From a virus, in IMG/VR virus record IMGVR_UViG_3300030419_002557, positions 1-64,000 of that record: a stretch of 64,000 nucleotides of DNA. One strand, 5' to 3'. This document shows positions 32,383 to 51,859 of this stretch, piece after piece; position 1 is the stretch's first letter; the number at the start of each line of letters is the position of its first letter. A program made the position numbers and the translations under genes. The notes under the pieces are model-generated. The model was given only the letters and a program-made list of their open reading frames with translations, was not told the DNA's origin and ran no database searches.

Positions 32383-32405
32383 TTGCCTCCTTGTGTATGC
32401 GTACA

Positions 32406-36769: not shown

Positions 36770-37326
36770 TATTCACCTCCTTCTTCTTTGCGTGGTTTGA
36801 GCTTACGCTCAGTGGCCTCGGCTGGAGCCTCGGCTGGGGCAGGGAACAGGGCCTCGGCCTCGGCGCGAGTCAACTCACGTTGCTCGATCACCAGCCCTTC
36901 GCTCTGAACCTTGACCACACCCTTGACGTTGATGGGTGGTAGACCTTCCTTCACAATCCTACGGACTGTGGAGAGGGCCTCGTCCAGGCCGTACTGCTCT
37001 TCGAGCAGCTTTGCCGCGTCCTTATCCATGGTGTGAGCTTCCTTGAACAACTTGATAAGCGTCCGAGTAGAAGACTCTTTGGTGTACCCTGCATGCTTGA
37101 GCATGAGGGCCAACACCCTGGTGTAAGGAATGCGTGCTGTACCAGCCCTCGGGCTGGGGTCCTCGGCCACGTCAACCTGTACGGTTCCGTGGACGAGCAC
37201 AGGCACATCGTATGAACCTGCTTCCAGATTGCTACGCGCTGCCTTGAACGTCTTGTCGTTGATAAGTTTACCGATTGCCACGATGAGCAAGTCGGTCATG
37301 TCTTGGGGGGGGATAGATTGTCCCAT
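36769..37326 (-). CDS. Hypothetical protein
   Basis: 185 aa; GAGGCAAC start element. Confidence 0.65.
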   Translation of the reverse strand: MGQSIPPQDMTDLLIVAIGKLINDKTFKAARSNLEAGSYDVPVLVHGTVQVDVAEDPSPRAGTARIPYTRVLALMLKHAGYTKESSTRTLIKLFKEAHTMDKDAAKLLEEQYGLDEALSTVRRIVKEGLPPINVKGVVKVQSEGLVIEQRELTRAEAEALFPAPAEAPAEATERKLKPRKEEGGE

Positions 37327-37376
37327 AGTTATGTTGCCTCCGTGGATACATAGTAACCACGATGTTTATGTTTGAG

Positions 37377-37402
37377 TGTCACGAAATGTCACAGCATGTC
37401 AC
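37377..37402 (-). promoter_or_regulatory. Triple TGTCAC direct repeat (10-bp period), candidate regulator site
   Basis: TGTCAC at 37377, 37387, 37397. Confidence 0.6.
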
Positions 37403-37863
37403 AGCATGCTGTCTTCTACGATTATCGGTTCTGTTTTCTCCTCCATCATGAGTTGTCGGTACATGATAAACGGTTGAAGTTTCACGGGTTTATTCTCTCC
37501 TCCGTTGTGATTGACGCGGGTGCATCTGATGTCTGGCAGGTTGGTCAGCGGTCCCAGGTGGTCGCAGTTGATGTCGAACACATAGTCCGCAAAAACATAC
37601 CGTTCGTTTGAGACTACACCTATGTTCTCTACACTTAGTGGACGCCTCTTGTTCTGCTGCTGGCATGCCCACACCACCCACCTTGTCGCAAGGATTGTTG
37701 GGCTGGTGAAGCGGGGCTTTGTTTGCCCCTGGTAGAGATCGACCATGAACTTCAAGAGCATGTCGCCCACCGTCCTGGCGTCTCCACCTTCGGGTAGCCA
37801 GTGGCAGACCTTTGCATAGGTCTCCACCCCTACGTTGAATCGCACAAGGTAGACCTTTGTCAT
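37399..37863 (-). CDS. Hypothetical protein
   Basis: 154 aa, ATGA-coupled. Confidence 0.55.
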   Translation of the reverse strand: MTKVYLVRFNVGVETYAKVCHWLPEGGDARTVGDMLLKFMVDLYQGQTKPRFTSPTILATRWVVWACQQQNKRRPLSVENIGVVSNERYVFADYVFDINCDHLGPLTNLPDIRCTRVNHNGGENKPVKLQPFIMYRQLMMEEKTEPIIVEDSML

Positions 37864-38015
37864 GGCTTCTTCCTTTCGCGTGGGTCTTTGGGCAGCAGTT
37901 CCCAGATGTCTGGTTCGTACTGCACAAAGGTTTTTTGTCCAGGCTCAAGGATCTTCTTAGACTCCACCCACTTTCGTCGGTGTGTCGGGTTGAGTTTTTT
38001 GTCTAAGAGTTTCAT
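37860..38015 (-). CDS. Small hypothetical protein (51 aa), not in the ORF track
   Basis: MKLLDKKLNPTHRRKW...RKKP*; ATGA overlaps at both ends. Confidence 0.5.
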   Translation of the reverse strand: MKLLDKKLNPTHRRKWVESKKILEPGQKTFVQYEPDIWELLPKDPRERKKP

Positions 38016-38425
38016 TTGAACCCCCCGTCATTCATCGATGGGGGCTCCTGCATCTGCTCACTGAGCCTATCCATGTAGTCATTCGTCCATGCATAAAGAG
38101 CCCGCTCGATCAGGATGGCTGCTCGCTTGCTTGGAACCTTCGTCAGGAATCCCTTGCGAGTGCCTTTGTCGTATGGGACAGGGGTTGCAAACTGTTCTGC
38201 CGTGATGTCCAGTACCTGCCCGCTCGGGTCGATTAGATACCAGTGCGGCGCACCTTCGTGACGGACAAAGCAGGGCGTGTACCCTGCATCCTTCCCGCCA
38301 AGCAAGTGGTAGGCCGCCTCGGATGCGACGTAGCAGTGGCCTGTGACGGGGCAATCGCTGCCCCGCCAAGGCTCACGCCTCAAGTCGTCGCTTACTTCAA
38401 GCGCATCGAGTAGTGCGTTCATCAT
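38012..38425 (-). CDS. YunG-like papain-fold protein (Cys-His-Asp)
   Basis: TGHCYVASEA..HWYL..VLDITAEQF. Confidence 0.55.
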   Translation of the reverse strand: MMNALLDALEVSDDLRREPWRGSDCPVTGHCYVASEAAYHLLGGKDAGYTPCFVRHEGAPHWYLIDPSGQVLDITAEQFATPVPYDKGTRKGFLTKVPSKRAAILIERALYAWTNDYMDRLSEQMQEPPSMNDGGFK

Positions 38426-38916
38426 TGCTTACCTCCAATCATGTGCATGATTGAGATGGGAGCATCGACAAGGTCACGGGGATGCATGTCGTCCATGCCC
38501 CATGGTGCGTCCTCGTAGCCCCGGACTCGCTCTTGAGTTGACTTCGAGATGATCCGCAGCAGCCTGTAGCCGTCGCTATCGTAGTAGTCGTTCGACTCGC
38601 ATGACTGGTACTCAAGGCAGCCGATGGCCTTGAACATCTCGCCTGGTGTGAGAGGGTTGACCTCAAAGTATTGGAGCAGCTTGTCACGGAAGATGTAGGT
38701 GTCGTCGCCGCCACTGACCCGTTCGTGGTCGTGGTTGGGGTAGCGAGTGTCAAGACTCCTGACGTTCTCCTTGTCAAGGATAGTGACGAGCAGCCTGCCT
38801 TCATCCATGAAGGAGTTGGAAGGGTCCTCAAAGGTGTATTGGCGGTACTGGCGGGTGCCGATGTAGCTCCCGACGATAGCGCATAGGTGGGTAAGGGTGC
38901 ATTGAAATGCTGACAT
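38422..38916 (-). CDS. Conserved phage hypothetical protein
   Basis: GAGGCAACC-ATG at 38916; ENVRSLDTRY..CLEYQSCE..GYEDAPWG. Confidence 0.65.
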   Translation of the reverse strand: MSAFQCTLTHLCAIVGSYIGTRQYRQYTFEDPSNSFMDEGRLLVTILDKENVRSLDTRYPNHDHERVSGGDDTYIFRDKLLQYFEVNPLTPGEMFKAIGCLEYQSCESNDYYDSDGYRLLRIISKSTQERVRGYEDAPWGMDDMHPRDLVDAPISIMHMIGGKQ

Positions 38917-38992
38917 GGTTGCCTCAATAGTTGTTAGTCGGTTGAAAGATGGGCAGTTTCGTGACGTGCCCAGGTCTTGCCTCACGTTTTGT

Positions 38993-39535
38993 TCAGGCCA
39001 GCCTGACTGGCATGACCACTGCTGACACAAGCCTCTCCACGTTTGTGACCAGGATTGGTCCGAGTGGATCGGTTGGCTTCTGGGTGACGGTGATCTCTCC
39101 ATCGCCTACCCACTTGAGTGCGGCGTTGAGCAGTACAGCGTTCACCCCTGCCTTCTCATGGTGCAGCTTCTGGATAGGCCAGCCGTGTTGGTCGAGGATC
39201 TCAGGGTTGATACCCAGGGTCTGCTTCTCCCATGAGGGTCCAGTCGCGGCGTGGACATCGGCGTGGGTTCGAAGCCACTCATCATGGCGCTCGCTTCCAA
39301 TGAGGTCGAGTGCGATGCTGCCATTGGTCACTGCAATGCGCGGTGCGTTGAATCCTTTGGCGAGCATAAGCCCTCCGATTCCCGTGCTCTTGAACGTGAA
39401 CCGCTTCAGGCCCAGGTCCTTTGGGTTCCACACCCTTTCGCTTTCCCGCTGACGGATAAGCTCCTCAGCGGCCTGTCGGAATGCGCGGGCCATTGCGGTC
39501 CCGGCTCGGTTGATTGTCTTGTCATGGTTGAACAT
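38993..39535 (-). CDS. Hypothetical protein
   Basis: GAGGCAAC start; C-terminal AVVMPVRL resembles sliding-clamp-like phage proteins. Confidence 0.55.
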   Translation of the reverse strand: MFNHDKTINRAGTAMARAFRQAAEELIRQRESERVWNPKDLGLKRFTFKSTGIGGLMLAKGFNAPRIAVTNGSIALDLIGSERHDEWLRTHADVHAATGPSWEKQTLGINPEILDQHGWPIQKLHHEKAGVNAVLLNAALKWVGDGEITVTQKPTDPLGPILVTNVERLVSAVVMPVRLA

Positions 39536-39586
39536 GGTTGCCTCCGTTTGTTCATAGTGTAAGTAGCATAGCTACGGTTTGTGAGT

Positions 39587-39602
39587 TGTCACGGTATGTC
39601 AC
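39587..39602 (-). promoter_or_regulatory. TGTCAC-N4-TGTCAC repeat
   Basis: TGTCACGGTATGTCAC, intergenic. Confidence 0.6.
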
Positions 39603-39604
39603 AA

Positions 39605-39850
39605 CTATTTGAATGCAGCCTGCACCACCCGTCCTTCCGGGCTGATGACTGCGTGCAGTGTCCAGCCTGGTTTCGGTGTGGCCGTCTTACTGTTCGCCTG
39701 CCTTGTCCACTTGAGGATCATGACCAGGCACACGTTGCCTGAGTCATCCATTGCTGGTGTGTCCCAGTTGATAGCGCTTGTGCCTGTGTCCTTTCGGTAC
39801 GAGTCCACTAAGGCGGTGATGATCTTTTCCTGGGCTTTGGTCTTACCCAT
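39605..39850 (-). CDS. Hypothetical protein
   Basis: Coupled 81-aa ORF, RBS GGAGGT. Confidence 0.55.
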   Translation of the reverse strand: MGKTKAQEKIITALVDSYRKDTGTSAINWDTPAMDDSGNVCLVMILKWTRQANSKTATPKPGWTLHAVISPEGRVVQAAFK

Positions 39851-40205
39851 AGATCACCTCCCCAAAGCAAGCCATCTGGATGATGGCGTCGGCAATGTCG
39901 GAGCCGACATCGCTACTGTCTCCCTCTGCTACCAGTCTTCTGATTGCGGACATGTAGTAGTCGTTGAGCGGTGCCTTCACGAACAGGTCGAGCGCGGCCT
40001 GCTCTACCTTCTCTCGGGTCAGGCTGTACGATGTTTCATCATCATCCGAATCGATGACAAGGTAGGACTTGTATGCCCCGTCCTCGCCCGTGTTGTCGAT
40101 GGCTCCAGCCATGGCCCAGTAGCCAATGCCGTAGCCTGCCATGTCTACGATGCCTTCGTAGTCGTCTTGTGACAGTTCAAAAGTGATTGCTGATGTCGCC
40201 ATCAC
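39843..40205 (-). CDS. Conserved phage hypothetical protein
   Basis: GIGYWA...ADAIIQMACFGEVIYG. Confidence 0.65.
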   Translation of the reverse strand: MMATSAITFELSQDDYEGIVDMAGYGIGYWAMAGAIDNTGEDGAYKSYLVIDSDDDETSYSLTREKVEQAALDLFVKAPLNDYYMSAIRRLVAEGDSSDVGSDIADAIIQMACFGEVIYG

Positions 40206-40642
40206 TCACCTCCTTCTTCGGCTTTGTTGGGCCGGTCAAGATTGTTGTAGTGGACATAGAGTTGCGTGCGAACATCGCGCTTCCCTGTCGGATCGAACAC
40301 CGTCCACTTCTCGTAGTGCGAAGACCAGCGGGTGATGTCCATCGCTTGGCGCTCCTCGTCACTCAGGGCATCCCACTCCTCTACGGTGTATCCCTCATCA
40401 GTCCCCTGTGGAGTTTCAACCCACGTCGTAAGACCTGTGAACTCAAAGCCACAAGCCTTGACCTCTTCGTGCAGTTCTTCAAGCACCTCCGTTTGGTGCC
40501 TCCCGCCCCATGGGAGTCCGCCGTCTCGCACAAGCAGATGGATGGTGACGCTCCCGCAGGGGTGAATCATGAGTGAAAGCACTTTAGTGCCAGGGTTTGT
40601 CAAACTCGCAATGACTTGCGTTGGTTGCTTCTCAGCTTCCAT
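40202..40642 (-). CDS. Hypothetical protein
   Basis: GAGGCAACA-ATG at 40642. Confidence 0.6.
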   Translation of the reverse strand: MEAEKQPTQVIASLTNPGTKVLSLMIHPCGSVTIHLLVRDGGLPWGGRHQTEVLEELHEEVKACGFEFTGLTTWVETPQGTDEGYTVEEWDALSDEERQAMDITRWSSHYEKWTVFDPTGKRDVRTQLYVHYNNLDRPNKAEEGGE

Positions 40643-40757
40643 TGTTGCCTCAGTGTTGTTGTTGTTGTTGTCGGTCAAGTTCTTGTCCTACGATATACAA
40701 AACGAAACGAATCGGGTTTAGCGGACAAAGAAAGTTTATTTTATTTTCGGCAGGCTC

Positions 40758-40880
40758 TCAGTCCCTCATCGAGATGATGAAGCAGAACACTGCCACCAAG
40801 AGGAAAGCACCTGCCAGGGTGTCCAAGATGACATGCCCTTGCTGGGCTGGCTGGTCAATCATCTGGTATTGGATCTTCAT
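40758..40880 (-). CDS. 40-aa single-TM protein, not in the ORF track
   Basis: MKIQYQMIDQPAQQGHVILDTLAGAFLLVAVFCFIISMRD*. Confidence 0.4.
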   Translation of the reverse strand: MKIQYQMIDQPAQQGHVILDTLAGAFLLVAVFCFIISMRD

Positions 40881-40884
40881 AGAT

Positions 40885-41180
40885 ATACCGTGGGATCTTA
40901 GAGTATATATATATAAATTAATTATCTAACTAATAGCTTTTGAGAGTAGAGGGGAGTGTGAGGGGAGAAGAGAACTTTGATTCCCGCTCTCGCTCTCCGT
41001 TTGGACGGTGACCAAACAGGAACCTAATGATTCCAGACGGTTGGCCACCGCCCTTGGGACGCCTGTCCTCCCCTTGGGACGGTTGCGCTTCACACTTGGG
41101 ACGCTTTGTTTCATGCACCGCAGTCATTTCAATGGTTTACGATTGTCTTTTGGGACACTATCGTCTCGCGACTGGGACGC
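40885..41180. other. Candidate replication origin: iteron array plus AT-rich tract
   Basis: TTGGGAC at 41054, 41074, 41096, 41150 and CTGGGAC at 41172 (reverse complement of the initiator iterons); AT-rich 40900-40940; purine-rich tract 40942-40975. Confidence 0.6.
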
Positions 41181-41342
41181 TTTGTTACCACGCAGCCAAT
41201 GAGCAAGTGCTCGTGCAACGATCTTCTCAAGGGGGGAAGGCTTACTCACGTTCTTGTTCCTCGATTGACTTGATGAATCCATGTGCCTCACTAACAGCCC
41301 AAGCAAACACAAGTATCCACAAGACTTGAAGTGTGAGCCAGA

Positions 41343-41636
41343 TCATTCCTCACCTCCTTTGAATGCTGGTTGGTATGAGTGAATGACAATCCAAGTCGTG
41401 TCGTGGTTGGTCCATCCTTTCAGGAAGGCCTTGCCCCACAGCATGAGGGCGGCCTGGTCTGAGTCCAGGTTGTGGACCACTTCAAACCTGGCCACGGGGC
41501 TTGGCTCTCCATCGACAGGCCACGTCGTGTAGCATCGTTGCAGTTGTTCGCACCCGACTTGGTCGGGCAGGTTCTCCAACTCTGCGATGTAAAGGTGGGA
41601 CACCTTGTCGACTGGTGCTTTGTATTGACTATTCAT
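41343..41636 (-). CDS. Hypothetical protein
   Basis: GAGGCAACTA-ATG. Confidence 0.6.
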   Translation of the reverse strand: MNSQYKAPVDKVSHLYIAELENLPDQVGCEQLQRCYTTWPVDGEPSPVARFEVVHNLDSDQAALMLWGKAFLKGWTNHDTTWIVIHSYQPAFKGGEE

Positions 41637-41745
41637 TAGTTGCCTCGGTGCCCATTGCTGGGCGTGTGTTGGGTTCTAAGGTGGGGGTCAGGGCTTGGGT
41701 AGGGGAATGCCTACCCTCACCCCTTGGTCGCCGTTAGAGGGCATT

Positions 41746-42063
41746 CTACGCGCTCTCGCTAATGGTTGGCGCGGTAGCCTGGTTTGCTTTCTCCCATGCT
41801 ACTTCTGCCTCTTCTTCTTCCAAGCACTCCTCGCACATGAAGGCATCGCCTATCGTAATCGATGGACTGAGCCACTCACGATTGAAGAGTTCACCGCATC
41901 CGTCGCAGCATTCGGCGCAGTCTTCGCAGACATCGCCTTCCTCTAAGGTTTCGAACCAGCCCTCGCATTGCTCGCACTGTTCCCAGTCACGGGGGATAGG
42001 TTGCTCATAGGTGGCCCTGAAGCAGGCCTCGGTGTACTCATCGCATAGGTGTCGGTCGCTCAT
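41746..42063 (-). CDS. Acidic multi-CxxC zinc-ribbon protein
   Basis: CEQC, CEDC, CDGC, CEEC; GAGGCAACC-ATG. Confidence 0.6.
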   Translation of the reverse strand: MSDRHLCDEYTEACFRATYEQPIPRDWEQCEQCEGWFETLEEGDVCEDCAECCDGCGELFNREWLSPSITIGDAFMCEECLEEEEAEVAWEKANQATAPTISESA

Positions 42064-42353
42064 GGTTGCCTCCAAAGGTTGGGGTCGTCGGGTAGCACTT
42101 CAAGCACATCGTCGCCCCAGTTGTTCCAGATGTCCCGCACACTCTCGACCTCGCACCGTTCAAGGCGTCGGACAATCAGTAGGGAGCCTACTCCGTTGCC
42201 GTTCCGGCCTGAGTGTTTCGCGTTGCCGCTACCGAATCGGTTCACTTGAACCATGAAGCCAGCATCGGCCAGCCTGTCGGCCAGTGCCTCGCGCTCCTGG
42301 TGTGACATGGGAAGGTTCTCCCCGGTTAGCAGGATGGGAAAGGTGTCGGTCAT
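42060..42353 (-). CDS. Hypothetical protein
   Basis: GAGGCAACT-ATG. Confidence 0.6.
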   Translation of the reverse strand: MTDTFPILLTGENLPMSHQEREALADRLADAGFMVQVNRFGSGNAKHSGRNGNGVGSLLIVRRLERCEVESVRDIWNNWGDDVLEVLPDDPNLWRQP

Positions 42354-42406
42354 AGTTGCCTCCAGTGTTAGCTGTTTGTTTATACTGTCGCAGTGCGACT
42401 ATGTCT

Positions 42407-42422
42407 TGTCACGAAATGTCAC
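42407..42422 (-). promoter_or_regulatory. TGTCAC-N4-TGTCAC repeat
   Basis: TGTCACGAAATGTCAC, identical to 37377-37392. Confidence 0.6.
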
Positions 42423-42425
42423 GGG

Positions 42426-42848
42426 TCAGTAGCCCATAGCCTCGGCGTACTGGTCGTAGTGTCGAGAGCTTTCATACTCCTGCCAGTTCGGCCAGCCTGG
42501 GTCGTCCTCGTACTTGTTCACCCATTCGGTGCCGGTGTGGACAGTGCCGTCCGGGTCAACCTCTTTCCATTCCTGCCACTTGCCACCCAGGTAGCGTTGT
42601 GTGGTCCTGGCTTTCATCTCAGACCAGGGGCAGAAGTCCACACTCTCGGATGAGATCTTGCCATCGCAGTCCTTTCCGTAGGTGTAGTAGGTCCGGTAGA
42701 CTCCCTCGATGTCAGCATCAAAGGTGACGCAGCCTCCTTCGTAGCCTTCATCGGTGGGTTGATGCCACCCGTGCTGGATGGTGTCGCCGGGTTTCATAGT
42801 GAGGATCACCTCGCCGTCGTTTATCCATGCTTTGAATCTCATTGTCAT
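42426..42848 (-). CDS. Conserved phage hypothetical protein
   Basis: PTDEGY..GKDCDG..DQYAEAMGY; ATGA-coupled. Confidence 0.6.
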   Translation of the reverse strand: MTMRFKAWINDGEVILTMKPGDTIQHGWHQPTDEGYEGGCVTFDADIEGVYRTYYTYGKDCDGKISSESVDFCPWSEMKARTTQRYLGGKWQEWKEVDPDGTVHTGTEWVNKYEDDPGWPNWQEYESSRHYDQYAEAMGY

Positions 42849-43120
42849 TCTCCCTCGTAGCCCTGTGACCAGGGCGAGTAGCTGGTGTCCCACCCCTCCT
42901 CTTCAAGCTCCTCCTGCACCTCATTGGCGAAGTCGTAGAACTTTCTGATTCGGTCGTAGCTGTTGCTCAACAAGACCTGCTCGGCGCGGTTCAGACACTC
43001 GTCTGCTCCGTTGTCGAAGGCCAAGTCGATGTTCGAGACCATGCCCATCAATCCGCTGATGAGTTCACCGAATCGGTGGTGGTCTTCAAAGTAGATCGCT
43101 TTCAAGTTCTTCTTGTTCAT
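42845..43120 (-). CDS. Hypothetical protein
   Basis: GAGGCAACCA-ATG. Confidence 0.6.
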   Translation of the reverse strand: MNKKNLKAIYFEDHHRFGELISGLMGMVSNIDLAFDNGADECLNRAEQVLLSNSYDRIRKFYDFANEVQEELEEEGWDTSYSPWSQGYEGE

Positions 43121-43139
43121 TGGTTGCCTCGTTGGTTGG

Positions 43140-43337
43140 TTAGAGTCCAGGTTGGCGAGCGTCGGCAGCAGCACACCAGATGTCTTCTGGTACGCAGCTA
43201 TGGTGAGCTACAATCCACCCACGGTCATCTTGCCCGACGAGCGAGCCTTGCCTTTCGCCTACCCTGCGCTTGCAGTAGCGGCACCAGCCTGCGAATTTGT
43301 TGCGTCGGAACGGGGTCTCACGGTCGATGCGGTTCAT
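43140..43337 (-). CDS. Small Zn-binding protein
   Basis: NKFAGWCRYC..GSL..HHSC; GAGGCAAC start. Confidence 0.55.
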   Translation of the reverse strand: MNRIDRETPFRRNKFAGWCRYCKRRVGERQGSLVGQDDRGWIVAHHSCVPEDIWCAAADARQPGL

Positions 43338-43352
43338 TGGTTGCCTCTCAGG

Positions 43353-43676
43353 TTAGCCAGCGTTGAAGCTGGCAATGATCACAGGGTTTTCTGGGGTGAA
43401 GTCAGCGACTCCGATCTTGGTCACCTCAAGTTGCTCCGGGTCGTCAACCCAGCCGTGGTACATGCCAGATCGTGGCTCAGTGGTCCCGTCTTGGAAGACC
43501 ATCACCCATCCTGCCTTCTGGGTGCGATCCCACTTGCGGTCATCCCACTCGTGGTAGGGGCCGGGGTAGGTGTATCGAGCCTCGGTTTCATCGGTCGCAA
43601 TGACGACGAATGAATCCCATTCATCGTAGCCACCGTTGTCAAGCCTCTTTACGAGGTAGATGTTCTTGCTGTTCAT
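43353..43676 (-). CDS. Conserved phage hypothetical protein
   Basis: GYDEWDSFVVIA..EAR..VTKIGVA..VIIASFNAG. Confidence 0.65.
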   Translation of the reverse strand: MNSKNIYLVKRLDNGGYDEWDSFVVIATDETEARYTYPGPYHEWDDRKWDRTQKAGWVMVFQDGTTEPRSGMYHGWVDDPEQLEVTKIGVADFTPENPVIIASFNAG

Positions 43677-43734
43677 TGTTGCCTCTCACTTAGAAAGACG
43701 ATGCCCGCCCTGGTAGGCGGACAAAGTCTTTCAG

Positions 43735-43768
43735 TTTTTTTTTGATAGGCTCGCAGCCTATCGTTTTT
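43735..43768 (+). terminator. Hairpin followed by a U-tract on the + (antisense) strand
   Basis: GATAGGC-TCGCA-GCCTATC-GTTTTT. Confidence 0.45.
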
Positions 43769-44144
43769 ATGCGGACACCACGGTCATCACCGCTGGGTTG
43801 GGTCCGAAGTTCCACACCAGTCCGTGCTCGGTAAGCACATCGAAGATTCTGTTCCAACCTTCGATGACCTCGGTGCCTTCGTAGGTCGGGTTGGGGATGT
43901 AGTCCTCGGTGAGGATCACCACCAGCGCATCCGGTTCCCACTGGCTGGGGTCCTCCTCTCCGAGGTAGGTGCGGTGGATGATGGCTGCACGCACTTGCTT
44001 TCTGAGGTGGGAGTGAGTGAGCGGTGAGCTACCGTCCTTGGTATCCAGTCCAAGGTCCGCAGCGATGCGTTCACCGAACTCGTTGTAGATGGCCTGCCTT
44101 ACTTGGAGCAGCGTGTTTAGTTTATGGATCGATGGTTCAATCAT
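43767..44144 (-). CDS. Hypothetical protein
   Basis: GAGGCAACCA-ATG at 44144. Confidence 0.6.
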   Translation of the reverse strand: MIEPSIHKLNTLLQVRQAIYNEFGERIAADLGLDTKDGSSPLTHSHLRKQVRAAIIHRTYLGEEDPSQWEPDALVVILTEDYIPNPTYEGTEVIEGWNRIFDVLTEHGLVWNFGPNPAVMTVVSA

Positions 44145-44234
44145 TGGTTGCCTCGCTTGTTGAAAGTGGTGGGGGCATCGCACCCCCAAGGACCGCTCGT
44201 GTCTTCTTGCCAGTGGTCTGTAGGCGGGTAGGGA

Positions 44235-44591
44235 TCATCCGGTGTAGACCATCCCTGCGGTTTCAAGGGCTTCTCGAAAGCCACCCTTCATCACTGAGCA
44301 GCCTTCTGCATACTGGGATGACACCAGCCAGATGTCCTGGTCAACAAACCAGAACAGGATGGGCCCTCGCTCGTAGTTGCAGGTGACCTCCCAGGCGGGG
44401 CCGCTGATCTCCTTGTAGCGGTAGTCGGGCGCTCCCCATGGGTCGGTGTAGTATTCCTTGACTCGCCTCTCCTCCTTCGGGTCGAAGCTCACATAGCAGG
44501 AGTCGTCTGGCATGCCTGCCTCTTTGGCGTTGGCACGCCATTCTGCTGCTACATGCTCGATCTTTTCCGGGGTAGGTGGTTTCCACTTCAT
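44235..44591 (-). CDS. Hypothetical protein
   Basis: RBS AGGAGA. Confidence 0.6.
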   Translation of the reverse strand: MKWKPPTPEKIEHVAAEWRANAKEAGMPDDSCYVSFDPKEERRVKEYYTDPWGAPDYRYKEISGPAWEVTCNYERGPILFWFVDQDIWLVSSQYAEGCSVMKGGFREALETAGMVYTG

Positions 44592-44594
44592 GGT

Positions 44595-44726
44595 CTATTC
44601 TCCTGCGTTGTAAACGTGGTAGCGCCCATCCAACTCACGTTGGACGAACAAGGTTGCCCAGGCCGGGTGGTGGTCACAGAATGTGATCGCTTCCCTGAGC
44701 GTCAAGAATGCTTTGATTGAATCCAT
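44595..44726 (-). CDS. Small hypothetical protein (43 aa), not in the ORF track
   Basis: GGGGAG RBS; MDSIKAFLTLREAITFCDHHP... Confidence 0.5.
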   Translation of the reverse strand: MDSIKAFLTLREAITFCDHHPAWATLFVQRELDGRYHVYNAGE

Positions 44727-44729
44727 GGT

Positions 44730-44879
44730 CTACTCCCCCACTTGGTAGGTGAACTCAAGGTTCCCCCAGGTCAAGCGGGCTTCAAGCTCCGCGCGTCGAC
44801 GTGTCGCAAAGCGACCGCCAAGGTTCTTGCCATTGAGAATCGCTTCCCATCTGCCGTGTCGTGAAATGATCGTGATCAT
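44730..44879 (-). CDS. Small hypothetical protein (49 aa), not in the ORF track
   Basis: GAGGCAACA-ATG; MITIISRHGRWEAILNGK... Confidence 0.55.
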   Translation of the reverse strand: MITIISRHGRWEAILNGKNLGGRFATRRRAELEARLTWGNLEFTYQVGE

Positions 44880-45034
44880 TGTTGCCTCTTGGTTGCGGAT
44901 CTATTAGATCCATTGACTGTATACTCAATAAAGGATCTATATATGGTGTGTGTGTTTATATATAGATCCTTGGATCAGTATAGAATCCAGGGGTTAGGTA
45001 AGGGTTAGTGGTAGGGTCAGTGTGTAGAGCACTG

Positions 45035-45217
45035 TCAATGCAATGGCCATGGGGTTGCCTCCTTAGTTTCGAGTTGGATGATGTCGGTTGTTTCACAGAT
45101 GACTTGGGCCTTGGCGTAGGCAGCCTTGGTCGCTATGCCCCAGGCAACTGCATACAGCAGGCCAGTGCGGACAGTAGGGTAGCCACCCAAGTGGTTCCAG
45201 GTTTTCAAGGTGTACAT
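45035..45217 (-). CDS. Small hypothetical protein, first ORF after the structured RNA
   Basis: RBS AAGGAGA. Confidence 0.5.
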   Translation of the reverse strand: MYTLKTWNHLGGYPTVRTGLLYAVAWGIATKAAYAKAQVICETTDIIQLETKEATPWPLH

Positions 45218-45226
45218 CGTTCTCCT

Positions 45227-45247
45227 TGTGGATAAGCCTGTGGATAA
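45227..45247. promoter_or_regulatory. Two perfect DnaA boxes in tandem
   Basis: TGTGGATAA (reverse complement of TTATCCACA) at 45227 and 45239. Confidence 0.6.
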
Positions 45248-45314
45248 GTCAGGCGGGTTGTTGACAATCTCAGTCTCAGTCAGCCTGTCAGCGTGGTGCT
45301 GCTCAAGCTCACGG

Positions 45315-46070
45315 AGACCGGCAGGACACCCTTAGTAGAGTGCCTGCTGGTTGCCTCCATTCCCCCCCACTGTTCCTCGGGGTGCCAGGTGTCATCGTGA
45401 CCTACTCGGACTTGGATGCACCGCCCGTCAATGGGCCGTGGGGGTCGTTCACCGCAACACATCCAGGCTATTTGAGGGTCTTCGCATGGTCGCTCGCCTC
45501 GCGGATCGGTCTCTTGCTTGCGTGTTCCTTGGCGTCGGGGCTCCTTGCAGGCACCGACCCTGTACTATGGCAAGCTCAACAGCAGCCCATCCTATGCCCC
45601 CTTCTCAGGGAGTCCCTATCACTATGGTGACCAGGGGGAGTGGGCTTTCACTCCTAACTCAGTCCGGCTTCCCTGCTCGAAAGCAGCATCCGGCTCGATG
45701 TGTTCAGCTTCTGTGCGCTACTGACTGCGTGTCTGGTCCCTCTCTACTTGCGGGGCCCGGTCTCTCACTTCTCGCCTACCCTTGCGGGGGTCTGGTACTC
45801 GGAGTGCTTAGGGGCGATCCGGCTTACGATAGCCAGGGTGCCTTGCAGTGTTCGCGATGTCAAAGAGCGTCACTCACCCCCCGTAGGGGTCCGGTTCGTC
45901 GCCATGCTTGCGAGCCCCCCGGATATGGGGTCCATCTCTGAGCACTTCTCCGAAGAGCGCCGCCGTAGCTCAGGTCCTGCACCCCAGTTGGGGTTGGAGC
46001 AGCCTGTCGAGATGAATCATTGATGAGTGATTGAAAGAGCGTGTCGAGTGGGGTGTTTCCCAGCGACACA
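45315..46070 (-). ncRNA. Large structured RNA or structured leader of the early operon; family unknown
   Basis: More than 12 hairpins with UUCG, UACG, GCAA and GAGA loops in the minus sense; two boxA-like motifs; upstream promoter; no credible CDS. Confidence 0.65.
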
Positions 46071-46073
46071 AGG

Positions 46074-46101
46074 ATTGTATCCGGTCTGCTTACACTGTCT
46101 A
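46074..46101 (-). promoter_or_regulatory. Putative early promoter with upstream A-tracts
   Basis: TAGACA-N16-TACAAT on the minus strand; AT-rich 46146-46182. Confidence 0.55.
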
Positions 46102-46266
46102 ATCGATGTACTGCGAGGAAGTTGGGCTGTAAACCCCTGGAATCATTGAATAAAAAAAATGCATTTTATTTGATTTTATTTTTGGTGCAGGCTCCCCGTC
46201 TATCGTTTAGCTTTTTTTCTTGTGTATTCATTTGCAATACACTCAAGCCTTAGTTATCATACACAC

Positions 46267-46701
46267 ATGAACTTGATTCTCGCCTTTGCTGCTCTCGACG
46301 CCGGGTCCCCCCGGCAACGGGCCCGGTGCGCCAAGACTGGACGATTCGTCGCCTGGTCCAAGGCTGCCCCGCTCCGTCGTGCTGTGGCTGGTCAGGTCTT
46401 GTTCGTTCCCCAGTCCCCCGCTGAGGCCCCCCAGGTCCCTGCCCCTGTGGCAGTGATTGACGAGGCCCCGGTAGTGGGGGGGGATAGCCCAGTGGCTGCT
46501 GCTGCTGCTGCTGTAGTCGATGGTGCTCGTCACCTGGTGGCTGCTGCTGGTCGCTGGTTCAGCCGGGCTGCTCGGTTGGCTGGGGCTGCTGCCCTTGCCG
46601 CTACCCTGGCCGCAGGTGCTGGCTGCATCGATGCCACCCCGGTCCAAGGTAGGTCAACCCTGGTCGACGGTCCCCGATCCGCGCATGGGGGTGCCCCATG
46701 A
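46267..46701 (+). CDS. Ala/Pro-rich hypothetical protein, probably leaderless
   Basis: TTGCAA-N17-TATCAT-N6-ATG; RCAKTGRF motif; hydrophobic LAGAAALAATLAAGAGC. Confidence 0.5.
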   Translation: MNLILAFAALDAGSPRQRARCAKTGRFVAWSKAAPLRRAVAGQVLFVPQSPAEAPQVPAPVAVIDEAPVVGGDSPVAAAAAAVVDGARHLVAAAGRWFSRAARLAGAAALAATLAAGAGCIDATPVQGRSTLVDGPRSAHGGAP

Positions 46702-46850
46702 CGTAGCAGCGGCGATCCCCTTGACTCGCACGGCCCCACCCGCATCGGTGGCGGGGTGCCGACCTCTGATCCCCGGGGGTGGGGGGGGGAGGCCCAACAA
46801 TCGTCGCGGTGAAGCCCGAGGGAGGGGGGGGATAACCCATATAGGGTTAA

Positions 46851-47723
46851 TTATGAGCGTTTACGCATAGCGTTCATCAGTTCGAGCCACTCAGGCATCT
46901 TCACAAGCTTTAGGCCACCATCGAGGATTGGAAGAGGCTCTGGAGAGTAGTGAGCGTGCGTAATCGTCGAAATCCAGGCCAAAGAGCCATTGTTGTTGCG
47001 TTTAGGCCGCTGTAGGCGTCTTCTAAGCGAGAAGTTCAATGGACCCCAAGCAGGACAGTTGGTGTGCCATGGATGAGCCATTCTGCCGACTGTTCCACCG
47101 TGTTTTACCAGCCAATCGCGACCAATAGTGTTGCGTATACTGTCTCTGCTCACACACCAGGCTCCTGTGTGCGATTTGTTGGACTTATCCATAAGGTTAT
47201 CCATACCTCTCCAATACCTACAAGTAGAGCAGTTTTTGCCCTGTACACGGTTGGCTTCGCGAGGATCTAAGGGGTCATTTGGCGATATTTGCCACCAAAC
47301 CACACCAATAGAGCGCCAACGGCACTTTTTCGCCTGTCTTGGACGCAAACCAGCAGCCCAGCGACGAACGTCATAAGCACGCTCTAAGGCTCCGTTTTGA
47401 GCCATTACACGCACCAAAGGGCCAACAATCTTCTCCACATAGCGCTCTTTGGACAGCGTCATGGGTGGTGCAGCGATGATTCTGCGTGCGTTGACGACCT
47501 CATGGACTTCAAGGCCAAACTGGCGAGCAAGCTTGGCGTCAGGCCACATGCCAAGCAAGGCTATGAAGTCTTTGGTGCCTGCTTTGGCCTCAAGCTCGTC
47601 CAAGAATGAGTGGATGACATCGTGATGGTCAGCGCAGACCCAATCAACGTAAGGTCTGTCGTGACGAGTCCGATTGTTAGCGAACTCTTTTGCCCACTTA
47701 CGAACCTTCAGGCGCTTCTTCAT
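46851..47723 (-). CDS. Hypothetical basic protein with HTH-like and Cys motifs
   Basis: LGMWPDAKLARQFGL; CSTCRYW..WC..CPAW. Confidence 0.6.
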   Translation of the reverse strand: MKKRLKVRKWAKEFANNRTRHDRPYVDWVCADHHDVIHSFLDELEAKAGTKDFIALLGMWPDAKLARQFGLEVHEVVNARRIIAAPPMTLSKERYVEKIVGPLVRVMAQNGALERAYDVRRWAAGLRPRQAKKCRWRSIGVVWWQISPNDPLDPREANRVQGKNCSTCRYWRGMDNLMDKSNKSHTGAWCVSRDSIRNTIGRDWLVKHGGTVGRMAHPWHTNCPAWGPLNFSLRRRLQRPKRNNNGSLAWISTITHAHYSPEPLPILDGGLKLVKMPEWLELMNAMRKRS

Positions 47724-47886
47724 CGAAGACCTGCTTGACCCTAACCTCGACGATGACTCGACTTACTTCAGGGTGATCAATCAAAACGAGAGAGTCTCGA
47801 AGCCTTGTGACCACTTCATCAGTGATGTCACTCATCTTGTTGACTGTCTTCATTGCTGAGCGAGTAACAGAAGGCATTATGCCCAA
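47698..47886 (-). CDS. Hypothetical protein
   Basis: Overlap-coupled small ORF. Confidence 0.45.
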   Translation of the reverse strand: MGIMPSVTRSAMKTVNKMSDITDEVVTRLRDSLVLIDHPEVSRVIVEVRVKQVFDEEAPEGS

Positions 47887-48107
47887 ATCCCTTCTTCTGG
47901 CACAATGACATCAAGCCAAGCCATCGTAGCGCCAACCAGGCGTAGTTCGAGGCTTACTTGAAGAGCATCGAGAGCTTCATCGACGCTGTTTCCTTCAGCC
48001 ACGACCTCATCATCCTCAATGAGCGCAAAGGTTCCGTCTTCTCGTTCTTGGAGAAAGAAACCCTCTGCAAGGTGAACAGTGTTTATGTCTTCCTGTAGTG
48101 AGTTCAT
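47877..48107 (-). CDS. HicB-like N-domain small acidic protein
   Basis: EDGTFAL..VAEGNSVDEAL; RBS GGAGG. Confidence 0.45.
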   Translation of the reverse strand: MNSLQEDINTVHLAEGFFLQEREDGTFALIEDDEVVAEGNSVDEALDALQVSLELRLVGATMAWLDVIVPEEGIWA

Positions 48108-48160
48108 TTCTTTCCTCCCTTCTTCTTGCCTTTGCATTTGTAAACCGGCATGTTCTCTCC

Positions 48161-48427
48161 TTATGATTCTCCGTTCTCACCAGTCCAGATGACCTGTTTG
48201 TCTTCATCGAGACCCAAGTCATCCATGTAGAATGGATCAAATTTGCTGGTCGTATCGGTGACATCGTAGACGACATCATCGAGTACGCTTGCTGGATTGT
48301 GTTGAAGCTCTTCAATCACAGTAGCGAAGGCGTCTTCGACATCATGAGACTCGACAGCGAGCCTGATGGTGAATGTGAATAGCTTGGGTGTTTTTTCGCG
48401 CATTGTCTTGGTAGAAGGATAACGCAT
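48161..48427 (-). CDS. Hypothetical acidic protein
   Basis: Coupled ORF. Confidence 0.5.
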   Translation of the reverse strand: MRYPSTKTMREKTPKLFTFTIRLAVESHDVEDAFATVIEELQHNPASVLDDVVYDVTDTTSKFDPFYMDDLGLDEDKQVIWTGENGES

Positions 48428-48610
48428 TTAGTCACCCTTCTTTGCACCAAACAACGATGGAGTTGCATCAAAGTCTTCTTTGAGCTTCCAGTGTTTGGGA
48501 GCATTGTGAAAGGCACAAACGGCTTTCCATTCTCCTTGTCGATTGACAACGACATCAGAGAGCCGCTTGCAGCCTTCTATTTCACATTCGCCTGGCTTGT
48601 CATCAGCCAT
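48428..48610 (-). CDS. Small Cys/His protein
   Basis: CEIEGC..VCAFH. Confidence 0.45.
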   Translation of the reverse strand: MADDKPGECEIEGCKRLSDVVVNRQGEWKAVCAFHNAPKHWKLKEDFDATPSLFGAKKGD

Positions 48611-49250
48611 CGTACTGATCGAAATGCCACGAGAAAAACTTCTTACTGTTTTTCCCATCACCTTGTCTGAAGACCAAGATTGCCGAACCCTTCGGTGCGC
48701 TTGATGCTTTCGAGCCATCTTCACGCAAGAACGGGACACGGCCTTTCATCAGACGAATCTGGTCAGCTTGCCAAGCCCAGTTGTGCCACCAAATGGTATC
48801 GGTGCAAGCCATGACGAGCATGACAACCGTTTTCCCTTTGAGTGACTCTTCCCAACCTTTCCTGACCCAATCACCAACGCTTCGACCGTAAGGAGGATTG
48901 ACGAAGATGCTTTGACCTTCCCAGTCTTCTAGAGCGAGAGCATCGGTACGAGAACCATCTTCATGGTCAGGACCGTAATAGCTGTCGAGAAGAGCAGTAT
49001 GTTTTAGGGCAGCAGCATCGAGTTCGAATCCAAACTCACGGTTGAGTCGATCAAACAGAGGCTTTGGCGTTCGCCAAGTGTCATTCTCTGATGAGTGGAT
49101 TGCTTTCCAAGCTGGAGACTTCTCCGCTTTCTTTGGAGCGGCTTTAGCCTTTGGCTTAGCAGGAGCCTTTGCTTTGGCCTTTGCGGGTGCTTTGGCTTTG
49201 GCTTTTGGCTTAGCGGCTGGTTTCTTGGCTGGTTTCTTAGCAGTTGGCAT
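48603..49250 (-). CDS. Phage DNA N6-adenine methyltransferase with a histone-H1-like AKP-rich N-terminal tail
   Basis: DTWRTPKPLFDRLNREFGFELDAAA, FVNPPYGR, WV.KG, DTIWWH, KGRVPF. Confidence 0.88.
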   Translation of the reverse strand: MPTAKKPAKKPAAKPKAKAKAPAKAKAKAPAKPKAKAAPKKAEKSPAWKAIHSSENDTWRTPKPLFDRLNREFGFELDAAALKHTALLDSYYGPDHEDGSRTDALALEDWEGQSIFVNPPYGRSVGDWVRKGWEESLKGKTVVMLVMACTDTIWWHNWAWQADQIRLMKGRVPFLREDGSKASSAPKGSAILVFRQGDGKNSKKFFSWHFDQYDG

Positions 49251-49259
49251 CGTATCTCC

Positions 49260-49676
49260 TTAGAACGGAACTTCTTCGTCCCAATCGTCATCTACATTAA
49301 CAGATTCGGGTGTATACGAAGCTTGTGGCTTCTTGTAGGAGTTGCCTTGAGAATCGCCTTGCTTGGTGTTTTTAGCCAAGAACTGTACTGTAAACGCGAC
49401 AATCATAGTGTTTGAGCGTTCCTGACCGTTCTTGTCAGTGTACTTTTGGGTCTCGATACGCCCTTCAACGAAGACCGTTTGCCCTTTAGTGCAGTATTTG
49501 GCGAGAGCTTCGCCGGTTTTACCGAAAGCAGTGCAGCGATGCCACTCTGTTTTCTTTTCCCCACGCGAAACAGACGTGGTTGCTACGGAAAAGCGACAGT
49601 AAGACGTACCGCTTTTGCCAGTTTGAAGTTCGGGATCGGCACCGAGGTTGCCGAGAAGAAATGCTTTGTTTACCAT
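49260..49676 (-). CDS. ssb: Single-stranded DNA-binding protein
   Basis: VNKAFLLGNLGADPE, TEWHRC, KGQTVFVEGRI, acidic DEEVPF tail. Confidence 0.95.
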   Translation of the reverse strand: MVNKAFLLGNLGADPELQTGKSGTSYCRFSVATTSVSRGEKKTEWHRCTAFGKTGEALAKYCTKGQTVFVEGRIETQKYTDKNGQERSNTMIVAFTVQFLAKNTKQGDSQGNSYKKPQASYTPESVNVDDDWDEEVPF

Positions 49677-49731
49677 TTTGGTTTACCTCCACCGAAAAGC
49701 TATCACATGGTGCAAAGTATGCACCCAGCCC

Positions 49732-49747
49732 GTGACAAATCGTGACA
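49732..49747 (+). promoter_or_regulatory. GTGACA-N4-GTGACA repeat at the ssb/terminase divergence
   Basis: CGTGACAAATCGTGACAT. Confidence 0.55.
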
Positions 49748-49766
49748 TTTCCGGTAGTTTGGAGAC

Positions 49767-50321
49767 ATGGAAGATGTAAAAGAGAAGCCTTTGGTTTTCG
49801 ATGGCGAGCCGATGTCTGCATTGTTGAACGGACAGCTTGTGAAATCGGAGCCGAACGAGGTCATTAAGCGAGAGGCTGAGGAACTTGTAGGATTCACGCC
49901 TACAGAACGCATGGAAGTGATGCAAGCTATTGCTATTACATGTGAAGAACAGGGCCTTGGTTACTTGAGAGACTGGATAAAGTCGGCCCGGAGTCATGAT
50001 TTCTTCCGAAAAGAGGCCTTTTCCATGAAGGAATGGAACGAATGGGTTGAAATTAAGGGGTTTAACGGGTGGTTTTACGGTGGATTTCCGCTTCCCAGAA
50101 CGATGTCGAAAGAGGATATTGAGGGCTTAGATGCGCTATTTTGGGACCAAATGCGTACAATGATGCGTGATGGGGACACGAAGGTGATGGATTTGTACGC
50201 GAAGATCACGGGTAAGACCGACCGAGCGCCGGAAGAAGCGGAGACCAACACCGAGATTGTTGAGTGGCTGCAAGTGAATGCTGGTTCGGTGGGTTGGAAG
50301 TCTGTTCGGAAGTTGAAATGA
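49767..50321 (+). CDS. Probable terminase small subunit
   Basis: Position and ATGA coupling to terL; helical. Confidence 0.55.
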   Translation: MEDVKEKPLVFDGEPMSALLNGQLVKSEPNEVIKREAEELVGFTPTERMEVMQAIAITCEEQGLGYLRDWIKSARSHDFFRKEAFSMKEWNEWVEIKGFNGWFYGGFPLPRTMSKEDIEGLDALFWDQMRTMMRDGDTKVMDLYAKITGKTDRAPEEAETNTEIVEWLQVNAGSVGWKSVRKLK

Positions 50322-51859
50322 AAGGCGTATCCACCGCGATGGTGAATCGCTTGATGGAGTTGGGCAACGACCCTGTCGAGTTTATCAGTCGACTGAAGAT
50401 TATCGACAACAAGGGAATGGAGCGTTTCTTCAACGAGCCGTTCTTAGAGCAGCAGATTGCGTTGTCTGACTTCATGGCTGGTCATCAGACGATTGTTCAC
50501 TGCAAGCCACGTCAGATTGGTGACACGACAGTGGGTTGTGCTTGGAACTTTACCTATGGGTATTGGTCAGCCGACCCTGTACGAACATTGATTGTAGCGA
50601 ACGACCACGATGCGACCGATTCGATTTTCCGAAGGCTGAAGTATTTCCACGACAGTCTTCCGAGTGTGATGAAGAGACCGATGGCGAGGTCGAACCGAAA
50701 GGAGATGGAGTTCTCCGACACGGGTGTGATGTTCCGATGCCTGACTGCTGGTGGTCGAGGGCACGGTCGTTCATTTACCTTTCAGCGGCTGCACGCAGAC
50801 GAGGTAGCCTTCTGGCCGAACGCCGACGACGTGTGGGCCTCAGTGACCTCTACGCTCCATGACGGGCCACACAAAAGTATTTTTGTCACGTCTACACCAA
50901 ACGGACCCGGTAATCTATTTCACAGGAAGGTACTCGATGCACAGAATGATCCAAATGCTTGCTTTCGGTTCTTTCGTTGGGCTGATCATCATGCGTACAG
51001 CCTTGAGCCGCCAAAAGACTGGGAGCCCACACAAGAAGAGTGGGACCTCAAAGAGTTGCACGACCTTAGTATTAACCAACTCTACTGGCGTAATCAGAAG
51101 ATCAGTGGCGCGGACGGTATTGGTGCGGACAGGTTTCGGAAGGAGTACCCCCTTACCGTTGAAGAGGGGTTCATGGAGGTCAGCGGTTCGTGGTTTAACG
51201 TCGCGTACCTGAACGAAGTCATTTGCACCTTACGTCCACCGGACCTTTCTAAGGAACTTCGGATACATAAACAGCCCCAAACAGGAGTTGCATACGCGAT
51301 TGGAGCCGACCCGAGTTGGGGAACAGGTAACGATTACGCTGTTGCACAGGTTTTGAGTGAGGATGGAGAGCTTGTAGCGACGTTTACAACGAACAAAAGA
51401 ACGCCAGAAGACTTCGCAATGCGAGTTGGAGAGCTTTCTTACTACTACAACAAGGCCAGGGTGCTGTGTGAATACAACACAGGTGGTGGTGGACCCGTTG
51501 TAATCCAGAAGATTCGAGAGATGGGCGTGCCATTGTGGTTCGATCCACAGACCGGGGACCACTTTAAGATGACTGGAGGGCGATCCTCAGTGGGTAAGAA
51601 GACCCAAGTTTATAGTCATTTAAGGTATTTAGTCGATGGTGACGGCCTGACCCTGACAGATTTGCCGACCGTTCAGCAGTTAATGCACATCCGAGAAGAA
51701 GACGGAAAGATTGAAGGTCGAGACGGATACCATGACGACTTGGCAGATGCGCTGGCGCTCGCAGCTTGGAATGCGAAGAATCTTCCGCGCCCCGTAAGCT
51801 TAGGAGCCTTTCCCTTTAAACGCAGGAGAAAAGCACTGCCTCATCCGTTCGGAGTGTGA
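50318..51859 (+). CDS. terL: Terminase large subunit
   Basis: KPRQIGDTT, LHADEVAFW, TSTPNG, FRKEYP, AIGADPSWG, HDDLADALALA. Confidence 0.93.
   Translation: MKGVSTAMVNRLMELGNDPVEFISRLKIIDNKGMERFFNEPFLEQQIALSDFMAGHQTIVHCKPRQIGDTTVGCAWNFTYGYWSADPVRTLIVANDHDATDSIFRRLKYFHDSLPSVMKRPMARSNRKEMEFSDTGVMFRCLTAGGRGHGRSFTFQRLHADEVAFWPNADDVWASVTSTLHDGPHKSIFVTSTPNGPGNLFHRKVLDAQNDPNACFRFFRWADHHAYSLEPPKDWEPTQEEWDLKELHDLSINQLYWRNQKISGADGIGADRFRKEYPLTVEEGFMEVSGSWFNVAYLNEVICTLRPPDLSKELRIHKQPQTGVAYAIGADPSWGTGNDYAVAQVLSEDGELVATFTTNKRTPEDFAMRVGELSYYYNKARVLCEYNTGGGGPVVIQKIREMGVPLWFDPQTGDHFKMTGGRSSVGKKTQVYSHLRYLVDGDGLTLTDLPTVQQLMHIREEDGKIEGRDGYHDDLADALALAAWNAKNLPRPVSLGAFPFKRRRKALPHPFGV

Follow-up and report, generated by a model that had tools for sequence, protein, structure and literature searches.

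The DNA analyzed here (the window) comprises positions 1 to 64,000 of the 72,076-base IMG/VR virus record IMGVR_UViG_3300030419_002557. Family searches identified phage genes for a large terminase, SSB, a DNA methylase, RecT, a YqaJ-type exonuclease, and a DnaB-type helicase, and no reverse transcriptase (RVT_1) or tyrosine integrase family was found in the phage record; judged by its terminase, the nearest cultured phage is Roseobacter phage CRP-7, with 26% identity. The locus in question lies on the minus strand, directly behind a promoter-like site, between a gene for a protein of 290 amino acids (aa) upstream and a 60-aa gene downstream, and the bin of the window with the highest G+C content, 45001-46000 (0.593), falls here. 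We put the probability that this region encodes a real structured RNA at roughly 0.9. The RNA, about 800 nucleotides (nt) long in the window phage, folds into at least 20 helices, many of them covarying, and represents an uncatalogued large structured class whose known range is narrow. Our best guess places it beside GOLLD and ROOL in general kind, though without relationship to either.

A search with the 290-aa protein recovered four related IMG/VR contigs, and a profile search returned the same four. Homologues of the RNA itself lie on three further IMG/VR phage contigs and, in metagenomes, on four contigs, of which L041 duplicates L002; blastn and nhmmer trace the RNA at full length in L045, L024, L002/L041, L005, and L004 and partially in L038. 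With the window, these sequences form five lineages: the window together with L045 and L024, then L038, L005, L002/L041, and L004. The metagenome homologues were found among 49 loci, 4 of them true homologues, in a scan with a 20-base signature, and they share 98.4% (L045), 92.7% (L024), and 78% (L038, truncated by the contig end) identity with the window. L004 holds a far more diverged full-length copy, with profile E values of 3.1e-18 (5' domain) and 4.5e-17 (core). By blastn, the core of the window (45715-45361) is 79.5% identical to L002 and 84.2% identical to L005, and the DNA of the 290-aa gene is 84.4% and 72.7% identical, respectively. The RNA is conserved as well as, or better than, the adjoining protein gene. 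Its length varies from about 650 to 850 nt between lineages.

How widely does such an RNA occur? Further signature scans of IMG/VR (20, 19, and 4 loci) yielded no additional homologue, only the known contigs L004 and L005 or chance matches such as L219, and these negatives are not exhaustive, since the one with 19 loci missed L002 although L002 7477-7676 fits its pattern. Two other matches were rejected as chance fits to the pattern: L007, from a scan with 3 loci, and L058, from another scan with 3 loci, the other two of which lay on the known contigs L002 and L005. A signature scan of genomes gave at least 120 loci, with no true homologue among the matches listed, and is uninformative on cellular genomes. 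Among GenBank phages, no DNA match to the RNA of the window or of L004 was found and no match to the 290-aa protein. As far as searched, the RNA was found in one small clade of uncultured marine phages. Public sequencing runs containing all or part of the stretch make up 20 rows from 9 studies, and those labeled by organism are marine or seawater metagenomes; no RNA data set is listed among the 20 rows, and the contigs from four of the runs are short and consist of DNA only.

The region is non-coding. Substitutions by position modulo 3 are flat in the core (19/26/30, 18/23/24, and 14/20/22) and in the 5' domain (22/31/34 and 21/22/29); the 290-aa gene has a clear third-position excess in the same count (30/12/90, 69/41/133, and 48/27/109). 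Insertions and deletions in the RNA measure 1, 2, 4, 5, 7, or 10 nt and would break a reading frame, whereas the 290-aa gene has none or a single one of 3 nt. Two plus-strand frames in the window, of 196 aa (45351-45941) and 107 aa (45700-46023), are broken or shifted in the relatives.

The fold is supported by compensatory change. RNAalifold, run on six core sequences, predicted 116 pairs in 19 helices, with 94.8% of 694 cells paired. Changes on both sides affected 23 of these pairs, compared to 9.4 +/- 2.2 in column shuffles (0 of 500 reached 23), and only 1 to 5 pairs when partners were slid by 1 to 3 columns. Column shuffling leaves common descent in place, and three of the six sequences are closely related; given the result with slid partners and the distribution of the changes across 11 helices, the core covariation is solid despite this limit. 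It is best in C2b, where 6 of 8 pairs changed on both sides, followed by T1 (5 pairs) and by H4 and H4a together (4 pairs). Within the 5' domain, five helices (P1, P2b, P4, P3, and P3a), checked by coordinates, carry compensatory changes in 4 lineages. The compensatory changes include G-U intermediates. Homologue collection and covariation analysis, which the first-pass annotation had proposed as a check on its RNA, thus came out in its favor for core and 5'-domain helices alike. The core is a folding unit, PL spanning about 240 nt and the closing helix of C2 about 80 nt.

In outline, the RNA has a 5' domain of about 215 nt, beginning with P1 a few bases from the inferred start, and a conserved core of about 350 nt (Table 1). 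P1 is UUGUUGA/UCAACAA in L004, and its register across lineages is uncertain. P4 reads CCAGGC/GCUUGG in L002 and L005 and UAAGGC/GCUUUG in L004, so that three pair types occur at one position; P3 reads CCUGG/CCAGG in L002 and L005 and AUCGG/CCGAU in L004, where P3a is CAGC/GCUG. The reverse complements of the two nearly invariant unpaired segments, J1 and J2, occur in the window only at their own sites, with no targets in trans. The variable domain that follows is enlarged by 53 nt in L024 and L038 and is larger again in L004; in run X16, 45712 and 45856 are joined on one DNA contig, indicating that the short form also exists in nature among close relatives. Whole peripheral domains have been gained or lost between lineages, and change is in this sense modular.

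Table 1. Coordinates of the structured RNA, its parts, and the adjoining upstream control features in the window
Feature	Coordinates	Strand	Remarks
Whole structured RNA	46067-45271	minus	5' domain, variable domain, 3' core, and two 3' hairpins
P1, 5'-terminal hairpin	46069-46041	minus	GUGUCG/CGACAC around conserved GGGAAACACCCC; hairpin formed from different sequence in each of 4 lineages
J1, unpaired segment	46042-46031	minus	ACGCUCUUUCAA; nearly invariant in all lineages, including L004
P2b hairpin	45993-45982	minus	CCCC-AACU-GGGG; CCUCC/GGAGG in L005, CCUCU/AGAGG in L002; 2 of 4 positions compensatory
P4 with inner P4a	45973-45938	minus	CUGAGC/GCUCAG with CUC-UUCG-GAG; covarying in 4 lineages
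P3 around P3a	45923-45890	minus	UCCGG/CCGGA around UCGC/GCGA; 3 of 5 P3 positions compensatory
P6 hairpin	45889-45878	minus	CCCC-UACG-GGGG; same in L005; CCCCC-ACC-GGGGG in L002; absent in L004
J2, unpaired junction	45870-45857	minus	ACGCUCUUUGACAU, conserved and nearly invariant; UCUUUGACAU invariant in all lineages
Variable peripheral domain	45856-45716	minus	About 140 nt; GCAA-capped hairpins; absent in L002 and L005
PL, long-range helix	45707-45694 with 45466-45452	minus	Closes first core domain; 13 pairs, 98.7% of cells paired
H1	45693-45664	minus	CCGG/CCGG base with AG...A repeats, topped by CUGCU-UUCG-AGCAG; UA to CG in L002
H3, three-way element	45646-45584	minus	Outer helix, H3a, and GAGA-capped H3b; 2 pairs changed on both sides
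H4 with H4a	45575-45516	minus	GCUUGC/GCAAGC; H4a with GCAA loop, contains GUCGG/CCGAC; 4 pairs changed on both sides
H6	45500-45474	minus	GAGG/CCUC around invariant GGCGAGCGA; AU to GC in L002
C2 domain	45444-45364	minus	Closing helix CCCCCAC/GUGGGGG, hairpins C2a and C2b (45422-45388); core helices 13 to 17
T1, GC-rich hairpin	45347-45321	minus	Loop ACUA in window, UUCG in L045 and L024; no U-tract after
T2, long imperfect hairpin	45320-45271	minus	About 20 pairs; -28 to -32 kcal/mol in 5 of 5 lineages from different sequences
Sigma-70-like promoter match	46101-46074	minus	TAGACA-16 nt-TACAAT; 10 of 12 positions; best of 11 matches in 31500-50500
Sequence-conserved block	46102-46160	minus	ATTCAATGATTCCA ... 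CGCAGT..ATCGATTAGAC; kept in L002, L005, and L004, without visible pair covariation; single occurrence in window

The core is largely retained in the most diverged copy. PL shows one AU/GC exchange in 3 of 6 sequences, and by eye L004 retains it with a matched extra pair on both strands; H1 is a longer hairpin there on an identical CCGG/CCGG base, while the three-way element H3, with its outer helix at 45646-45637/45592-45584, is largely missing. H4 and H4a, separated by an AGUA/GAA internal loop that may be a loop-E-like motif, are both kept in L004, H4a with a CG-to-GC flip, and C2b, which exists in four different versions across lineages, is kept as well. At L004 4225-4245, the two closing strands of C2 (CCCCCAC and GUGGGG) adjoin as a local hairpin and do not enclose C2a and C2b, which suggests that one helix has been rewired in nature. 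Another observation concerns the invariant unpaired UUAGGAGUGAAAGC (45654-45640), which holds a Shine-Dalgarno-like AGGAG; L004 has AUAAGGAAAGC at the equivalent place (3527+484 to +494). By complementarity, UUAGGAGUGAAAGC could pair with J1 (CUUUCA/UGAAAG; CUUUUC/GGAAAG in L004) or with 16S rRNA.

All ten helices listed by the first-pass annotation are present on the minus strand of the window, at the coordinates given there, and comparison with the relatives bears out eight of them. These include GUGUCG/CGACAC, CUGAGC/GCUCAG with its inner CUC-UUCG-GAG, CCCC-UACG-GGGG, CCCU-GAGA-AGGG, and the hairpin at 45347-45321, together with three for which substituted versions were seen: CCC-GCAA-GGG (CCCU-UCCG-AGGG in L024), CUGCU-UUCG-AGCAG (CCGCU/AGCGG in L002), and GUCGG/CCGAC (GUGGG/CCCGC in relatives). 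The remaining two, GGAGUG/CACUCC (45654-45637) and UGGAUGUG/UGCAUCCA (45465-45413), are complementary in the window but not kept in relatives, where their strands covary with H3, PL, and C2b instead. The motif AGCCGGA does recur three times, as had been reported (45824-45818, 45695-45689, and 45669-45663), and the promoter read just upstream is present. The structured RNA that was proposed is real but longer than had been drawn, continuing through a second conserved hairpin to about 45271. Its proposed status as a new large non-coding RNA class is supported as well: the region is non-coding, shows compensatory changes in five lineages, is promoter-proximal, and matches no Rfam family.

From the promoter match, transcription is predicted to start at about 46067. 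At the equivalent site, relatives carry the hexamers TAGACG/TACTTA and TTGCAA/TACATT, and L002 retains its promoter despite an insertion. The conserved block upstream probably serves DNA-level control of divergent promoters. The divergent gene on the plus strand (46267-46701) encodes a 144-aa protein with a conserved, arginine-rich N-terminal part of about 50 residues and a variable C-terminal part of low complexity, and its counterparts lie at 7013-7423 in L005 and 2944-3408 in L004. The 290-aa protein (46851-47723, minus strand), conserved and rich in cysteine and tryptophan, is always encoded upstream of the RNA. No family was found for the 290-aa, 144-aa, 118-aa, 140-aa, and 155-aa proteins in Pfam, NCBIfam, PHROG, or PDB, and Atlas, applied to neighboring proteins including the 290-aa protein, gave only weak helix-turn-helix leads (scores of at most 0.79).

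On the 3' side, more than 50 nt of variable sequence separates T2 from the next start codon. The gene after the RNA is the 60-aa gene in the window, L045, and L024, and it is preceded by an extra gene of 59 to 62 aa in L002, L004, L005, and L038. No terminator-like site was found in 44000-47500, and no U-tract follows the RNA. Back-to-back terminator-like hairpins for both strands lie at 43702-43763, between the genes at 43767-44189 and 43353-43676, and are the best such site in the 19 kb scanned (31500-50500). Far from this locus, a single open frame of 4,744 aa occupies 2685-16919 on the plus strand, with no Pfam family at E values up to 0.01.

How might such an RNA work? We give about even odds to its acting as a stable RNA released from the transcript, as opposed to working in cis alone. 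Host RNA polymerase would produce it at the head of a leftward transcript, early in infection to judge from its position. Terminal hairpins are known to protect RNAs against exonucleases and 5'-end-dependent decay, and P1 at the 5' end and T1 and T2 at the 3' end may shield this RNA in the same way. T2, about two helical turns long, the length of a double-strand RNase substrate, could be cut by such an enzyme, e.g., RNase III, as the early processing sites of phage T7 are; cleavage there would free the RNA from the downstream mRNA, and stable free RNA would accumulate. Once free, the RNA might target a partner from the host or the phage in trans, either as an assembly of RNA alone or as one of RNA and protein, as has been proposed for GOLLD and ROOL. 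The RNA is also not tied to one gene, since the next gene differs between lineages.

Several points weigh against a released structured RNA. The comparison covers no more than five lineages, of which three are closely related, and the per-pair statistics are weak. Folding energy relative to dinucleotide shuffles is unremarkable on either strand (z of -0.54 for minus and +0.10 for plus), so the excess stability for which the first-pass annotation had suggested looking did not appear. Alignment folding is nearly equal on the two strands (-135.9 versus -131.6 kcal/mol), and the excess of G-U cells (43) over A-C cells (9), which favors the minus strand, is partly built in, the structure having been predicted on that strand. 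The -10 hexamer TACTTA is weak in L004 and L005. Transcription probably continues into the next genes, because no terminator-like site lies 3' of the RNA, and this fits a cis-acting leader equally well. Finally, the processing at T2, the stability of the RNA, its start site, and any partner are predictions. As for the strand, minus-sense hairpins are capped by UUCG (twice), UACG, GAGA, and GCAA (at least three times), and to our knowledge the complements of these caps belong to no stable tetraloop family. The minus strand is favored because of the promoter and the direction of the neighboring genes, the G-U excess, and the cap sequences taken together.

The strongest competitor, possible but clearly less probable than an even chance, is that the element works in cis as a leader of the early mRNA, either modifying RNA polymerase for terminator read-through or stabilizing the operon transcript. 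The put RNA of phage HK022 is a structured RNA encoded close behind a phage early promoter, and no terminator separates it from the operon. The RNA here is likewise promoter-proximal, with no terminator-like site before the next gene, and it lies about 1.5 kb upstream of a terminator-like hairpin in its own direction (43723-43702). A T7-type polymerase family was not found in the record, which favors a leader only weakly, since the control of that search also gave nothing. Known polymerase-modifying RNAs measure about 70 to 120 nt, however, and the present RNA is some ten times larger than put, multi-domain, with long-range helices and optional peripheral domains. Because the following gene differs between lineages, a gene-specific switch is also argued against, and the RNA has neither the expression platform nor the fixed downstream gene by which a riboswitch or gene-specific leader would be recognized. 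Terminator-like sites, moreover, are not enriched in the 19 kb scanned (24, compared to 20.9 +/- 5.1 in shuffles).

An origin-associated transcript that primes or activates replication, as ColE1 RNA II or transcription at the lambda origin does, appears unlikely, in spite of several suggestive features. Tandem DnaA-box-like 9-mers, TTATCCACA twice, lie on the minus strand at 45227-45235 and 45239-45247; no other perfect copy occurs in 64 kb, and the pair directly precedes the ribosome-binding site of the 60-aa gene. A second tandem pair, TTATCCATA twice, is on the plus strand within the 290-aa gene (47185-47193 and 47197-47205), and the period is 12 nt in both. Box pairs flank the RNA on both sides in L002, L004, L024, L038, and L045, an AT-rich stretch occupies 46140-46260, and the phage has SSB, DnaB, RecT, and YqaJ-type genes. 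Some phage replication initiators carry box pairs inside their own gene. ColE1 RNA II is itself a promoter-proximal folded transcript of several hundred nt, and the RNA here resembles it in lying close to DnaA-box-like repeats and an AT-rich stretch. Yet the distance of the boxes from the RNA is variable, with a gene intervening in L002, L004, and L038, no box pair was seen in L005, whose contig ends early, and the boxes may instead be operators of a phage protein. Unlike in ColE1, no antisense (plus-strand) promoter-like site was found inside 45271-46067. The fold is also far more elaborate than that of RNA II, and a primer needs no covarying, tetraloop-capped, multi-domain structure.

A large ribozyme or intron, whether self-splicing, self-cleaving, or endowed with a new activity, is very improbable. 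The size of the RNA, its many GNRA and UNCG caps, its long-range helices, and its invariant unpaired segments are features typical of catalytic RNAs; however, nothing in it matches group I, group II, RNase P, or the small ribozyme families, the record holds no reverse transcriptase, and there is no upstream exon, since no conserved minus-strand frame lies between the promoter and the RNA. The least credible idea is that there is no RNA at all, only a diverged protein gene or hairpins conserved at the DNA level: the two long plus-strand frames and the unremarkable folding energy speak for it, but those frames break or shift in relatives, third-position excess is lacking, indels are frame-breaking, and the compensatory changes pass through G-U intermediates.

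A released structured RNA therefore remains the reading that we prefer. More speculatively, and with odds well below even, it may represent a new class of ornate phage RNA that has its own activity and captures or alters a host component in the first minutes of infection, whether as an RNA-only particle that assembles itself, as a new ribozyme, or as a ribonucleoprotein. We know of only a handful of bacterial or phage RNAs this large and complex. Such RNAs are ribozyme or ribonucleoprotein cores, or else they are open puzzles such as GOLLD, ROOL, and OLE, and an unrelated further class would provide an independent case for asking what ornate RNAs do. If the reading is right, GOLLD and ROOL would have in this RNA a counterpart that is marine and expressed early, and that is sufficiently compact and modular for cryo-electron microscopy. 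The RNA also lends itself to experiments: its place behind an early promoter is clear, its natural deletion variants show which domains are dispensable, and its core is compact, at about 350 nt. It would further mean that uncultured marine phages hold large RNAs of which catalogues of short motifs would see pieces at best; the IMG/VR motif catalogue of Fremin and colleagues spans motifs of 29 to 151 nt only (PMC10690425). Full-text searches of the published literature returned no description of the RNA, although the supplements of that report, which lie outside the scope of such searches, may list overlapping short motifs.

Comparison with known families leaves the RNA unassigned. An Rfam cmscan of the whole window at gathering scores matched tRNA only, and at E values up to 10 the region 44900-46400 gave six weak, unrelated matches and no large-RNA family; L002, L004, L005, L024, and L038 gave no match at E values up to 1. 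The novelty that such a scan might have removed thus stands. One of the weak matches, to CRISPR-DR25 at 46011-46037 (E value of 0.38), was rejected because this stretch is not conserved in relatives. Model searches exclude membership in GOLLD, ROOL, group I and group II introns, RNase P, transfer-messenger RNA (tmRNA), known ribozymes, and the marine metagenome motifs of Rfam, and ARAGORN found no tmRNA in the window. The phi29 packaging RNA (pRNA), a phage structural RNA of about 170 nt in a phi29-type packaging motor, likewise comes from an early promoter and preserves its fold as its sequence drifts; the phage studied here differs in having an ordinary large terminase.

The closest likeness is to GOLLD and ROOL. 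Both are phage- or prophage-encoded, and the RNA here sits in a virus record with terminase, SSB, RecT, YqaJ, and DnaB-type genes. GOLLD and ROOL assemble into homo-oligomeric cages made of RNA only. According to one preprint, the two often stand beside tRNA genes or tRNA islands, and ROOL, carried by phages and prophages, is large and complex and is not known to have a protein partner or a function (bioRxiv 10.1101/2024.12.08.627333). Our RNA shares with ROOL its size and complexity as a phage RNA but belongs to marine phages, whereas ROOL is associated with the rumen and Firmicutes, and it differs from both families in its distance from tRNA genes, the nearest and sole tRNA of the window, tRNA-Asn at 31403-31478, being about 14 kb away. 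It departs from GOLLD, too, in its position directly behind an early promoter-like site and in a range that, as far as searched, is far narrower. In other respects GOLLD is the better match, as a phage-encoded RNA of about 800 nt with many covarying helices. The same preprint describes GOLLD as conserved in its 3' part and looser in its 5' part and places one GOLLD in a marine metagenome (bioRxiv 10.1101/2024.12.08.627333); the RNA described here is built likewise, with a conserved 3' core and a 5' side that carries an optional domain.

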